A DNA stretch of 64,000 bases from positions 7,177 through 71,176 of the forward strand of contig DASVDO010000008.1 in assembly GCA_036381055.1 (NCBI GenBank). Direction: 5' to 3'. Under the pieces are notes generated by a model. That model worked only from the letters and a program-made list of their open reading frames with translations. It ran no database searches and was not told where the DNA came from. Below, piece after piece: positions 57,388 to 64,000 of the stretch. Origin of the DNA: Burkholderiales bacterium (lineage in GTDB: Bacteria; Pseudomonadota; Gammaproteobacteria; Burkholderiales; SG8-39). Made by a program: the position numbers and the translations under genes. The stretch's first letter is position 1; the number at the start of each line of letters is the position of its first letter.

Positions 57388-59025
57388 TCAGGGCGCGTAG
57401 CCGGGGATGCGCGCCTCGTCCACCGCATCGATCTGCTCCGGGTCGAGGAACATCTCGGCGTAGCGCTGGTAGACCTTCTTGCGCACGAAGATGGTGAACA
57501 GGTCCGGGTCGATGTGCCCGTTCTGGCTCATGCGGCCGAGGATCTCGAGCGACTCGGAGAGCGTCTTGCCCTTCTTGTACGGCCGGTCCTTGGCGGTGAG
57601 CGCCTCGAAGATGTCGGCGATGCCCATGCAGCGCGCCTGCACCGACATCTGCTCGCGCGTCAGGCCCTTCGGATAGCCCTTGCCGTCCATACGCTCGTGG
57701 TGCCCGCCGGCGTACTCGGGCACGTTGGCGAGGTGCTTGGGCCAGGGCAGCGCCTCGAGCATGCGGATGGTCGCGACGATGTGGTGGTTGATGATCTTGC
57801 GCTCGTCCTCGGTGAGCGTGCCCGAGCGGATGGTCAGGTTCTTCACCTCGTCGTCGGAGAGGAAGTTCGCCTCGTGGCCGGTCATGTCGCGCCAGCGGTA
57901 GGCGGCGATGCGCTTGACCCGCGCCACGTCCTCGTCCGACATGCGCTCGCTGCCGATGTTGCAGGCGTGCAGGAAGCGCCGGTCGTCCTCCAGCTCGCGC
58001 AGCCGGCGCCGGCGCTGCATCTCGTCCAGGTCGCCCTTCAGCGCCTGGATCTCGAGGTCGCGCTTCAGCACCTCGAAGCGCGTGTCGATGAGATGGATGC
58101 GGTCGTAGATGGTCTCGAGCTTGGTCGCCTTGTCGACCACGTGCACCGGCGTGGTGACCTTGCCGCAGTCGTGCAGCAGCCCCGCGATCTTCAGCTCGTA
58201 GCGGTCCTTCTCGGTCATGCTGAACTGCGCGAGCGGGCCGTCCCGCGTCTCGTTCACCGCCTCGGCGAGCAGCATGGTGAGCACCGGCACGCGCTGGCAG
58301 TGGCCGCCGGTGTAGGGCGACTTCTCGTCGATCGCCGTGTTGATCAGGTTGATGAACGACTCGAAGAGCTGCTCGAGCTGGTTGATCAGCAGCCGGTTGG
58401 TGAGCGCGATCGCCGCCTGCGAGGCGAGCGACTCGGCGAGCCGCTGGTCGGAGGCCGAGAAGGCGCCGATCTCCCCGGTGACCGGGTCCAGCGCGTTGAT
58501 CAGCTGCAGCACGCCGATCGTCTCGCCCTCGTGGTTGCGCATCGGCACCGTGAGGAACGACTTGGAGCGGTAGCCGGTCTTCGCGTCGAAGCCGCGCGTG
58601 CCGGTGAAGTCGAAGCCTTCCGCGGTGTAGGCGTCGGGGATGTTGACCGTCGTGCCGTTCAGCGCGACGTAGGCCGACACGTTGCTGTGGTTCGGCTTGC
58701 CGTCCTTGTAGAGCTGCACCGGGTAGAAGGGAATCGGGTTGCCGGTGGTGCCGCCGAGGTAGAACTTGAGCGACGTGGTGCGCATGATCTCGAAGCGCAG
58801 CGTCTTCTCCTCGGTCACCCGGTAGAGCGTGCCGCCGTCGGCGCGCGTGATGGTCTTCGCGGCGGTGAGGATCGCCTCGAGCAGGCGGTTGATGTCGCGC
58901 TCGGCGGACAGCGACGCGCCGATGGCGTTGAGCTGGTCGAGGCGCCGCACCAGGTCGTCGGCGGCGCCCGGCGACAGGCTGCCGGGGAAGCGCAACTCCT
59001 GCGTCGCGTCGAAGCTTGCGCTCAC
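57388..59025 (-). CDS. GAF domain-containing HD-GYP phosphodiesterase
   Basis: The N-terminal GAF domain reads ...DAKTGYRSKSFLTVPMRNHEGETIGVLQLINA. The HD motif is LLHDCGK and the GYP motif is HHERMDGKGYP. Confidence 0.9.
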   Translation of the reverse strand: MSASFDATQELRFPGSLSPGAADDLVRRLDQLNAIGASLSAERDINRLLEAILTAAKTITRADGGTLYRVTEEKTLRFEIMRTTSLKFYLGGTTGNPIPFYPVQLYKDGKPNHSNVSAYVALNGTTVNIPDAYTAEGFDFTGTRGFDAKTGYRSKSFLTVPMRNHEGETIGVLQLINALDPVTGEIGAFSASDQRLAESLASQAAIALTNRLLINQLEQLFESFINLINTAIDEKSPYTGGHCQRVPVLTMLLAEAVNETRDGPLAQFSMTEKDRYELKIAGLLHDCGKVTTPVHVVDKATKLETIYDRIHLIDTRFEVLKRDLEIQALKGDLDEMQRRRRLRELEDDRRFLHACNIGSERMSDEDVARVKRIAAYRWRDMTGHEANFLSDDEVKNLTIRSGTLTEDERKIINHHIVATIRMLEALPWPKHLANVPEYAGGHHERMDGKGYPKGLTREQMSVQARCMGIADIFEALTAKDRPYKKGKTLSESLEILGRMSQNGHIDPDLFTIFVRKKVYQRYAEMFLDPEQIDAVDEARIPGYAP

Positions 59026-59044
59026 CGGGCTCTCGCCCCCGCGC

Positions 59045-63320: not shown

Positions 63321-63321
63321 G

Positions 63322-64000
63322 CTATTTCTCGTCGAACGCCATGATGGGCGCCTCGCCGCCGGGCGGCGGCGGCGCGCGGCGCAGCGCGGCGAGGCGCTCG
63401 GCGTAGATGCGCAGCAGCGCTCGCTGCGGGTGGCGCCGCTCGAGCTCCTCGAGGTGGCGCTCGGCCTCGTTCCAGCGCCCGGCGCGCAGGGCGGCGAGCA
63501 TCTCGTCCCACTGCGCCAGCTCGGCGCGCACTTCGGGGCCGGCCTCGAAGGCGAGGCCGAGCGGCTCGTACACCGTAATCGCTCCTTCCCTTCCTTTCAC
63601 CCTGATCCGGTCGACCTCGCGGAACAGCACGTCCGGCGCCTGGGCGCGGGTCGCCTCCCCCACCAGAATCCCGACGCCATAATACTTCGTGCGGCCTTCC
63701 AGCCGCGAGGCGACATTCACGGCGTCCCCCATGGCGGTGTAGGCGCGGCGCACCTGCGAGCCCATGTCGCCCACGCGCACCCGGCCGGTGTTGAGGCCGA
63801 CGCCGATGCGCAGCGGCGGCCAGCCGCGCGCCGCGAAGCGCCGGTTCAGAACTTCACATTCTTTTGCCATGTCCAGCGCCGCGAGCAGCGCGTGGCGGGC
63901 GTGCTGCGGGTCCTCGAGCGGCGCGCCCCAGAAGGCCATGATCGCGTCGCCGATGTACTTGTCGAGCGTGCCGCCGTGGCGGCCGCGGATGATGGCGCTC
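63322..64000 (-). CDS. class III adenylate/guanylate cyclase, C-terminal part (5' end outside the window)
   Basis: The frame is open to the window edge. GTLDKYIGDAIMAFWGAP, RIGVGLNTG and GDAVNVASRLEG are present, followed by a helical C-terminal extension. Confidence 0.85.
   Translation of the reverse strand, partial: SAIIRGRHGGTLDKYIGDAIMAFWGAPLEDPQHARHALLAALDMAKECEVLNRRFAARGWPPLRIGVGLNTGRVRVGDMGSQVRRAYTAMGDAVNVASRLEGRTKYYGVGILVGEATRAQAPDVLFREVDRIRVKGREGAITVYEPLGLAFEAGPEVRAELAQWDEMLAALRAGRWNEAERHLEELERRHPQRALLRIYAERLAALRRAPPPPGGEAPIMAFDEK

Follow-up and report, generated by a model that had tools for sequence, protein, structure and literature searches.

Introduction

Pilus and type II secretion ATPases that are controlled by cyclic di-GMP (c-di-GMP) receive this messenger through MshEN domains or through PilZ/FimX partners, and control of type IV pili by cyclic AMP (cAMP) is, to our knowledge, known only as transcriptional control (Vfr, SyCRP1). 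The present work concerns a 64-kb stretch of DNA from an uncultured soil Burkholderiales bacterium (contig DASVDO010000008.1; this whole stretch is called the window, and positions are counted from its first letter). The region analysed, from 56.7 to 64.0 kb, is filled by six genes, all co-oriented on the minus strand, among them one for a PilB-like ATPase with a putative cAMP-type GAF domain at its N-terminus. We lean towards reading this cluster as a membrane-receptor cAMP signalling module, the conserved outputs of which would be two cytoplasmic GAF-domain enzymes.

Control by c-di-GMP has been described for PilB-, MshE- and GspE-type ATPases, and in Vibrio cholerae it acts on MshE via MshEN (PMC5013675, PMC4624772), a domain with two 24-residue motifs of the form RLGxx(L/V/I)(L/V/I)xxG(L/V/I)(L/V/I)xxxxLxxxLxxQ (PMC5013675). 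In Pseudomonas aeruginosa, type IV pili are under transcriptional control by CyaB, cAMP-Vfr and CpdA (PMC3019171, PMC8787478). Enzymes of c-di-GMP turnover that are controlled by cAMP include Lcd1 (GAF-GGDEF) and Bd1971 (CNB-EAL, CNB being a cyclic nucleotide-binding domain; PMC8846402), and the GAF-HD-GYP protein Tlr0485, reported in 2020, is presented as cAMP-activated in the two later papers that cite it (10.1101/2021.11.05.467447 and PMC8846402). Cross-talk between cAMP and c-di-GMP by way of fused sensors is already established, and the locus described here adds one new element, a motor ATPase of the pilus family with a GAF sensor of the cAMP type. Neither a GAF-fused PilB/GspE ATPase nor the cluster turned up as a subject of study in a literature search. 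An earlier reading of this DNA (the original prediction) had considered the module unstudied, which stands for the ATPase and for the cluster as a whole but not for a cAMP-activated GAF-HD-GYP protein, of which Tlr0485 is a published case.

The locus resembles each of these systems in part. Like MshE and PilB, the window ATPase belongs by its sequence to the PilB/GspE family of hexameric ATPases and has an N-terminal nucleotide-messenger region with an MshEN-type N1 domain (36 bits only in Pfam); unlike them, it is without the 24-residue motif, carries an extra N-terminal GAF domain of the type that binds cyclic mononucleotides (cNMP), and has cAMP as its predicted messenger. With the P. aeruginosa CyaB system the locus would share a class IIIb catalytic domain, a dedicated cAMP phosphodiesterase (PDE; predicted here) and a tie between cAMP and type IV pili. 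In Pseudomonas, cAMP acts via Vfr, whereas the window cluster has no CRP-family regulator and its receptor is predicted to be the motor ATPase. CyaB has MASE2 as its sensor domain, and CpdA is a class III phosphodiesterase; the cyclase of the type found in the window has a CHASE2 sensor, and the PDE has a metallo-beta-lactamase (MBL) fold. The GAF-HD-GYP protein has the architecture of Tlr0485 and of PmGH, an intact HD and HHExxDGxGYP, and would follow the same logic of cAMP-to-c-di-GMP cross-talk, but it has an insertion of about 95 residues in the HD-GYP domain and its gene stands in an operon with the GAF-ATPase, beside a dedicated cyclase. The GAF domains fall into the subfamily of Anabaena CyaB1/CyaB2 and mammalian PDE2/5/10, where the outputs are a cyclase or a class I PDE; here they occur singly, not as tandem GAF-A/GAF-B, and the outputs are a secretion/pilus ATPase and an HD-GYP domain. 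As in Bd1971 and Lcd1, a cyclic mononucleotide would steer c-di-GMP turnover via a fused sensor, but the catalytic domains are others, and neither of those proteins is said to lie in a cluster with a dedicated cyclase/PDE pair and a motor ATPase.

A conserved signalling operon

Domains were called by Pfam hmmscan of the open reading frames (ORFs) of the window, and the junctions were read on the DNA. Together they bear out the five consecutive minus-strand genes upstream of pilA, their domains and the gaps between them as first described (Table 1). A single nucleotide separates the cyclase from the PDE gene (TAG-c-GTG, at 63321) and the PDE from the CNB-rhodanese gene (TAG-c-ATG, at 62552). 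The spacers that follow measure 81 nt to the ATPase gene, 19 nt from there to the GAF-HD-GYP gene, and 172 nt from the latter to pilA. The 1-nt and 19-nt junctions suggest that the cluster is an operon.

Relatives were scanned with the GAF-N1 region of the ATPase as query, using one genome per GTDB species; this gave 80 loci with 68-92% identity out of at least 559 relatives, all of them in Burkholderiales or Betaproteobacteria metagenome-assembled genomes (MAGs). The presence of genes was determined by tblastn with all cluster proteins, counting only loci with enough flank. A GAF-HD-GYP gene follows the GAF-ATPase gene directly in all 66 loci, the CHASE2-cyclase is present in 57 of 59, FHA in 53/53 and PP2C in 50/50. 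The PDE (63/73), the CHASE2-Ser/Thr kinase (35/44) and the CNB-rhodanese gene (52/76) are less constant. Upstream of the ATPase, 43 of 59 loci have cyclase, PDE and CNB-rhodanese, seven have cyclase and PDE, and seven the cyclase only. The whole arrangement can be seen in an 89%-identical relative (L001/L002), where genes for a CHASE2-Ser/Thr kinase, a PP2C phosphatase, an FHA protein and the CHASE2-cyclase, in that order, are followed by the same PDE, CNB-rhodanese, GAF-ATPase, GAF-HD-GYP, pilin and glycosyltransferase genes.

Because the gene order repeats in dozens of species-level genomes, the arrangement is not due to chance, and the cluster is a real, strongly conserved signalling operon. 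From the synteny counts, the conserved core is PP2C-FHA-CHASE2-cyclase ... GAF-ATPase-GAF-HD-GYP, to which PDE and CNB-rhodanese are accessory. The co-conservation that the original prediction had depended on is strong for cyclase, GAF-ATPase and GAF-HD-GYP within one Burkholderiales lineage. Its self-contained circuit of five genes has to be given up, given that the genes sit in a larger unit, (CHASE2-kinase)-PP2C-FHA-CHASE2-cyclase, and that the PDE is missing in 10 of 73 loci and the CNB-rhodanese gene in 24 of 76.

The CHASE2-kinase gene is gone in nine of the 44 relatives (L004, L013 and others), while PP2C and FHA stay. The outer flanks of the kinase-less loci (CoA-transferase, formyltransferase) are unchanged, and the loss or gain of the kinase is therefore an indel. 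It is odd that these relatives should have a phosphatase and a phospho-threonine reader without a cognate kinase.

The GAF-ATPase and its family

The catalytic boxes of the ATPase are intact: Walker A GPTGSGKT at 520, Asp box EDPVE at 548, Walker B DPDIIMVGEMRD at 582 and His box TGHLVFATLH at 606. In the PDB it matches Myxococcus xanthus PilB (3e-107), Thermus PilF and Geobacter PilB best; GspE/EpsE rank below these, and PilT ranks much lower still. By these matches the ATPase is PilB-like, nearest to the extension ATPases of type IVa pili. The c-di-GMP motif of MshEN (RLGxx(L/V/I)(L/V/I)xxG...) was found in neither strict nor relaxed form in the window ATPase and 14 distant members of the family, and c-di-GMP input via MshEN was rejected for the GAF-ATPase family on this ground. 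The ATPase thus lacks the canonical c-di-GMP input and carries a GAF domain ahead of a degenerate N1. The linker of the ATPase is acidic and rich in serine.

The C-terminal zinc-motif region of the ATPase (59045-59470, residues ~650-790) is atypical, with LCSC (CxC), a spacer of about 65 residues and CDKC. Other members of the family have CxxC instead of CxC, and the PDB alignments to PilB stop short of this region.

ATPases that are 88-93% identical to the window copy form more than 100 clusters at 90% identity, mostly from soil metagenomes. The N-terminal 370 residues match 283 clusters (50% identity) at E<=1e-30, and full-length members of 745-810 aa with 30-49% identity include those of Giesbergeria (Comamonadaceae) and Candidatus Nitrobium (Nitrospirota). 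Variants with tandem GAF domains also exist. A profile search with a diverse N-terminal alignment brought up mainly fragments from the clade already sampled and did not widen the family further. The distant homologues are orphans. In Giesbergeria, a gene for a 47%-identical PDE ends 5 nt upstream of the GAF-ATPase gene, with no CNB gene adjoining; the pairing of PDE and ATPase is therefore older than the clade, and the full cluster is an innovation of the Burkholderiales MAGs. Upstream of the GAF-ATPase gene of a second relative lies a gene for an MBL hydrolase of another kind (27% identity).

Three cases show other contexts or architectures. In one (L090, 7494-8351), two small PilZ-domain genes adjoin a distant GAF-ATPase homologue, a hint that some lineages may receive c-di-GMP input in trans. 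Another encodes a 746-aa homologue (P0129; L091, 1449-3689), 49% identical over the N-terminal region, in which Walker A is degenerate (APPASGTTSALAA) and the usual boxes are missing; it lies beside a different MBL hydrolase gene and a YcaO gene, and its sequence is probably that of a catalytically dead paralogue. A metagenomic protein of 1003 aa (P0121) has the same GAF followed by about six MshEN/N1-like repeats and is without an ATPase domain, an architecture which suggests that the GAF-N1 unit is able to act alone.

The two GAF domains

The GAF domain of the ATPase matches CyaB2 in the PDB (1ykd, cAMP-bound, E=4.5e-27), then PDE10A GAF-B (2zmf, 3e-10), PmGH (6e-9), PDE2A (1mc0, 4e-8) and PDE5 (4e-8). 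That of the GAF-HD-GYP protein matches PDE5 (1.8e-14), CyaB2 (2e-11), PmGH (7e-10) and also PDE2A. These matches place both in the class of cNMP-binding GAFs of the CyaB/PDE type. Both contain the block NI.D.Y...D..TGYR(T/S)K..L..P...GE.IGV.Q.IN, which had been singled out earlier as distinctive; the block is indeed present in both proteins, but it marks cNMP-binding GAFs in general, as in CyaB2, PDE2/5/10 and PmGH. The two domains share 29% identity and are no closer to each other than either is to CyaB2, and we have rejected the idea that they are paralogous modules.

In CyaB2 GAFb, cAMP is contacted by R291, T293, I308, D356 and N359 (PMC4411481). HMMER aligns R57, T59 and V74 of the ATPase with the first three of these residues; equivalents of D356 and N359 were not alignable. 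The CyaB2 segment NADRSTLW aligns with NADRLTIY of the ATPase, an octapeptide that 73 of 80 orthologues have. Among distant members of the GAF-ATPase family, R57 is conserved to at least 90%, and the cAMP-binding PDE10A GAF-B has ADR at the same position. The CyaB2-type Arg/Thr adenine contacts kept by the ATPase GAF suggest that it binds cAMP. The ligand of the HD-GYP GAF is less certain, and because this domain has no equivalent of Arg291, a ligand common to both GAFs is doubtful. The proposal that a cNMP is read by both domains survives insofar as both appear to be of the cNMP class and the ATPase GAF keeps the CyaB2 contacts.

The cyclase and its product

The cyclase gene runs past the end of the window, and its fragment has the motifs DKYIGD (Lys), YTAMGD (Thr) and VNVASRLE (Asn/Arg). 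Relatives have a CHASE2-cyclase of about 700 aa (CHASE2 and Guanylate_cyc in L001/L002, at full length in L001 at 5983-8079); in these proteins the first metal-binding Asp (FSDVRGF) can be seen, the window copy being incomplete. The orthologous cyclase domain matches P. aeruginosa CyaB best in the PDB (3r5g, E=2e-33) and shares its Lys and Thr; in the alignment, the position of the CyaB Lys is taken by Glu in the guanylate cyclase Cya2 (2w01). A Lys/Thr pair, in which Asp is replaced by Thr, marks subclass IIIb adenylate cyclases in the classification of Linder and Schultz. By these residues the enzyme is a class IIIb adenylate cyclase, with substrate-specifying and catalytic residues as expected. 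Since it carries the Lys/Thr pair of CyaB, the product is likely cAMP, which gives a probable identity to a cyclic mononucleotide that had been left unspecified.

The predicted MBL-fold phosphodiesterase

PF02112 (PDEase_II) matches the PDE with 48.6 bits against a cutoff of 23.7, over residues 46-105 only, and the HxHLDH signature is present as HSHLDH; the NF041851 model, with a cutoff of 400, gives 44 bits. In precomputed Pfam annotations, orthologues have both PF02112 and PF23023 (Anti-Pycsar_Apyc1). PF23023, annotated for every orthologue, was not reported on the window PDE by hmmscan at E<=0.01. Orthologues are named 3',5'-cyclic-nucleotide phosphodiesterase by NCBI and RNase BN by JGI. 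A profile of the family finds yeast PDE1 (2.5e-9) and Apyc1 (0.007) in the PDB. An AlphaFold model, built on a shallow alignment (84-94% identity) and of mediocre confidence (predicted local distance difference test, pLDDT, 64), retrieves Apyc1, YhfI, PhnP, RNase Z and a cAMP-bound MBL protein with Foldseek at template modelling scores of ~0.5-0.58. By the profile and the model, the PDE falls among the MBL hydrolases of the RNase Z/Apyc1/YhfI/PhnP branch, and a cNMP phosphodiesterase is the best reading, not a proven one.

The CNB-rhodanese protein

This protein has one canonical CNB domain (residues 167-251; 79.6 bits with Pfam cNMP_binding) with a phosphate-binding cassette, GDAFGEEALVSEAKRNATV, which is kept in orthologues. 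The rhodanese domain (residues 265-344) has the active-site loop CQSGRRS and similarity of the PspE/GlpE type in NCBIfam. The protein had been described as having CNB domains in tandem, and this is right for one CNB domain, and for the rhodanese, but not for the first half. Residues 1-160 give no Pfam match even at E<=10, and the FGE...RxA cassette is missing from this half of the sequence. In a PDB search, a profile of the N-terminal half (27 orthologues) retrieves CNB proteins alone, with weak scores (3mdp, E=0.005; Epac and DNR, E=0.3-1.3), and hhalign of this half against the protein's own CNB is collinear over 81 columns with E=0.004 and an HH probability of only 7.9%. A single-sequence AlphaFold model had a pLDDT of 36, unusable for the fold of the N-terminal half, which by its sequence would be at best a degenerate CNB-like domain.

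The GAF-HD-GYP protein

The HD-GYP motifs are intact (HDCGK at 285, HHERMDGKGYP at 442), and PmGH is the protein matched best in the PDB (4mcw, E=6e-31), the alignment falling into two blocks on either side of the insertion. We predict a phosphodiesterase that acts on c-di-GMP or a related dinucleotide. The insertion (residues 303-398; window 57832-58119) aligns ungapped in 73 of 73 orthologues. It is charged and probably helical.

pilA, the glycosylation island and the rest of the window

A putative -24/-12 promoter upstream of pilA (Table 1) has what we take to be a perfect match to the sigma-54 (RpoN) consensus. With its own sigma-54 promoter, pilA is therefore a separate transcription unit; we have rejected it as a member of the operon on account of this promoter and of its variable adjacency. 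Further upstream, at 57330-57370 on the minus strand, there are TGTC repeats, tTGTCagTGTCgcc, which are reminiscent of PilR binding sites. Expression of pilA is probably controlled by PilS/PilR and RpoN, independently of the upstream operon.

Downstream of pilA lies a large glycosylation island (~40800-56700), which may be a locus for the modification of pilin or of surface glycans. Besides the genes in Table 1, it encodes a TMEM260-like O-mannosyltransferase, a GT87-like protein, an LPG_synthase_TM protein, another GT2, a sulfotransferase, a DegT aminotransferase and a GFO/IDH/MocA oxidoreductase. The gene content of the island varies among relatives.

Table 1. Coordinates of the signalling cluster and of neighbouring features in the 64-kb window
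Feature	Position	Strand	Evidence or remark
Class III (IIIb-type) adenylate cyclase, 3' part (predicted)	63322-64000	-	PF00211, 47.7 bits; gene runs past window end
MBL-fold phosphodiesterase, 255 aa, probably a cyclic-nucleotide PDE (class II/Apyc1-like)	62553-63320	-	Lactamase_B_2, 75 bits; PF02112 PDEase_II
CNB-rhodanese protein, 350 aa	61499-62551	-	cNMP_binding, residues 167-251; Rhodanese, residues 265-344
Sigma-70-like promoter, TTGTGA-17-TATTAT (putative)	61456-61484	-	In 81-nt AT-richer spacer before ATPase gene; weak evidence
GAF-ATPase, 790 aa	59045-61417	-	GAF 38-185; MshEN-type N1 250-339; T2SSE 372-784 (374 bits)
GAF domain of ATPase (residues 38-185), putatively cAMP-type	60863-61306	-	Match to solved cNMP GAFs
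GAF-HD-GYP phosphodiesterase (predicted), 545 aa	57388-59025	-	Pfam; HD_5, 148 bits
Sigma-54 (-24/-12) promoter of pilA (putative), TGGCAC-N5-TTGCA	57273-57288	-	Read on sequence
Type IVa major pilin pilA	56736-57215	-	Pfam N_methyl and Pilin
GT2 (glycosylation island)	55510-56682
Membrane protein of ~480 aa (glycosylation island)	54071-55510		No Pfam match
GT2-GtrA (glycosylation island)	52974-~54070

The GC content is 0.645-0.677 across 56500-61500 and about 0.72 elsewhere. Third codon positions still have a GC content (GC3) of 0.92-0.98 there, and that of second positions (GC2) in the ATPase and HD-GYP genes is 0.39-0.42. From the GC3, the drop is therefore due to the amino-acid composition of the highly conserved ATPase and HD-GYP proteins and not to foreign DNA, and a foreign insert at 56.5-61.5 kb was rejected. 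No riboswitch or other RNA element was found between 56 and 64 kb, where Rfam gave no match at E<=1. Elsewhere in the window, two well-supported ORFs (GC3 0.92), at 10646-11944 (+; 432 aa) and 32782-34269 (+; 495 aa), have no Pfam match at E<=1e-3 or 1e-4.

Discussion

In the mechanism that we propose, the CHASE2 cyclase, of class IIIb by its sequence, would make cAMP upon an extracytoplasmic cue, and the class II/Apyc1-like PDE, presumably coupled to it in translation, would reset the signal, although some relatives appear to dispense with it. The CNB-rhodanese protein may be an accessory cAMP receptor. Binding of cAMP to the N-terminal GAF would act as an allosteric switch of the PilB-like hexameric ATPase, as the Arg/Thr contacts suggest, and this GAF input would replace the c-di-GMP-binding MshEN input of MshE/PilB-type ATPases. 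The co-transcribed GAF-HD-GYP protein, the GAF ligand of which is less certain, would lower c-di-GMP or a related dinucleotide, like the cAMP-activated Tlr0485. The PP2C, FHA and usually CHASE2-Ser/Thr kinase proteins encoded upstream could put a phospho-threonine layer on the same input. The most likely output would be a switch to type IV pilus assembly and low c-di-GMP, that is, a motile, dispersed state, in which the ATPase would serve a pilus machine encoded elsewhere, the neighbouring pilA being a separate sigma-54 unit. A bolder form of this proposal, which we put forward tentatively and consider possible rather than probable, is that cAMP directly gates a PilB-family motor via the GAF while the GAF-HD-GYP enzyme collapses c-di-GMP. 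One CHASE2-sensed cue, acting through cyclase and Ser/Thr kinase, would flip both messengers and the motor post-translationally, and the wider, mostly orphan GAF-PilB family (~280 clusters at 50% identity, from Proteobacteria to Nitrospirota) would represent filament or secretion motors that are generally under cNMP control.

A number of observations weigh against our reading of the cluster as a cAMP module that drives a pilus motor. The family call of the PDE leans on a 60-residue Pfam match, on annotation names and on a low-confidence model, and the second-best PDB match of the GAF-HD-GYP protein is the cGAMP (cyclic GMP-AMP) phosphodiesterase V-cGAP3 (5z7c), c-di-GMP and cGAMP being not separable by sequence. 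The HD-GYP GAF, in the window and in orthologues, reads ADGGTLY where CyaB2 and PmGH have ADRST and ADRAS, with Gly in place of Arg291, which in CyaB2 is in contact with N1 of adenine. Neither GAF has a complete NKFDE motif: the ATPase GAF has IINNK-AGVP-F-GPL-AE (NK..F..AE, with Asp replaced by Ala) and the HD-GYP GAF has NA..F..DQ. No cyclase, HD-GYP gene or pilus/secretion machinery adjoins the ATPase in the nine distant contexts. The last three of these points would fit a conserved signalling operon, just as real, in which the GAFs ignore local cAMP, having another ligand or serving as dimerisation or regulatory modules, so that the CNB-rhodanese protein would be the sole cAMP receptor and ATPase and GAF-HD-GYP would be merely co-regulated. 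No GAF ligand has been identified for PmGH, the closest solved GAF-HD-GYP protein, and the ATPase gene may have a promoter of its own, sigma-70-like sites numbering 2 in 7.5 kb against 0.3 expected from shuffled sequence. On the other hand, the residues of the ATPase GAF at CyaB2 cAMP-contact positions are almost invariant, and its best PDB matches are all cNMP-binding GAFs. Moreover, 14 of 59 loci keep cyclase, ATPase and HD-GYP without CNB-rhodanese, and therefore something else must read the product of the cyclase there; the PDE-ATPase pair of Giesbergeria likewise has no CNB protein beside it. That the GAFs ignore local cAMP is possible, especially for the HD-GYP GAF, but as an account of the whole cluster we regard it as unlikely.

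A different doubt concerns the motor. With 480 bits against a cutoff of 675.65 for NCBIfam PilB (TIGR02538) and 438 against 630.25 for GspE (TIGR02533), the ATPase falls under both cutoffs; no gene for a PilC/GspF platform, PilM-Q or a prepilin peptidase was found in the 64-kb window or in the relatives' flanks, and in 9 distant and 80 close contexts the ATPase is an orphan in this respect. Only nine of 59 loci have a pilin gene (>=50% identity) at most 700 bp away from the HD-GYP gene, and pilA is a lineage-specific neighbour, not a part of the conserved module; the coupling to a pilin and glycan locus once proposed for the circuit comes down to this lineage-specific adjacency. The ATPase, with its atypical zinc-motif region and long spacer, might then not be a type IV pilus extension motor at all but drive some other PilB/GspE-dependent process (T2SS-like, that is, resembling a type II secretion system, or another filament), or act as a stand-alone nucleotide-regulated signalling ATPase, the adjacency of pilA being coincidental. 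We consider this somewhat unlikely, though a serious contender, given that its closest solved relatives are type IVa PilB/PilF, ahead of GspE, that its catalytic boxes are all intact, and that a major pilin gene of at least 50% identity is found downstream on the same strand in 26 of 59 relatives. Extension ATPases are also commonly encoded apart from their machines. A very improbable alternative is a Pycsar-like anti-phage defence made up of cyclase, CNB protein and Apyc1-like PDE. PADLOC does match PycC models to the cyclase domain (92 bits) and PycTIR models to the CNB domain (36 bits), and the orthologues of the PDE have the PF23023 annotation, but the PADLOC matches go no further than the generic domains of a cyclase and a CNB protein, an effector with a TIR domain or one that disrupts membranes is lacking (the CNB protein has a rhodanese domain at its end), and the cyclase appears to be a CHASE2 membrane receptor with the adenylate-cyclase Lys/Thr pair. 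The locus is embedded in stable housekeeping synteny (leuA, ilv, lpt, valS) in at least 80 species and not in a variable defence island. A Pycsar or other defence system was rejected for want of a toxic effector and of more than generic PADLOC matches.

If the cAMP module is as we propose, it would let cAMP act on filament assembly directly, fast and at the post-translational level. It would also be a compact example of cross-talk between cAMP and c-di-GMP, with the ATPase encoded beside a receptor cyclase, a PDE and a c-di-GMP-degrading enzyme. The lineage is abundant in soil metagenomes, and the GAF-ATPase architecture, for which we found no experimental characterisation in the literature, is phylogenetically broad.

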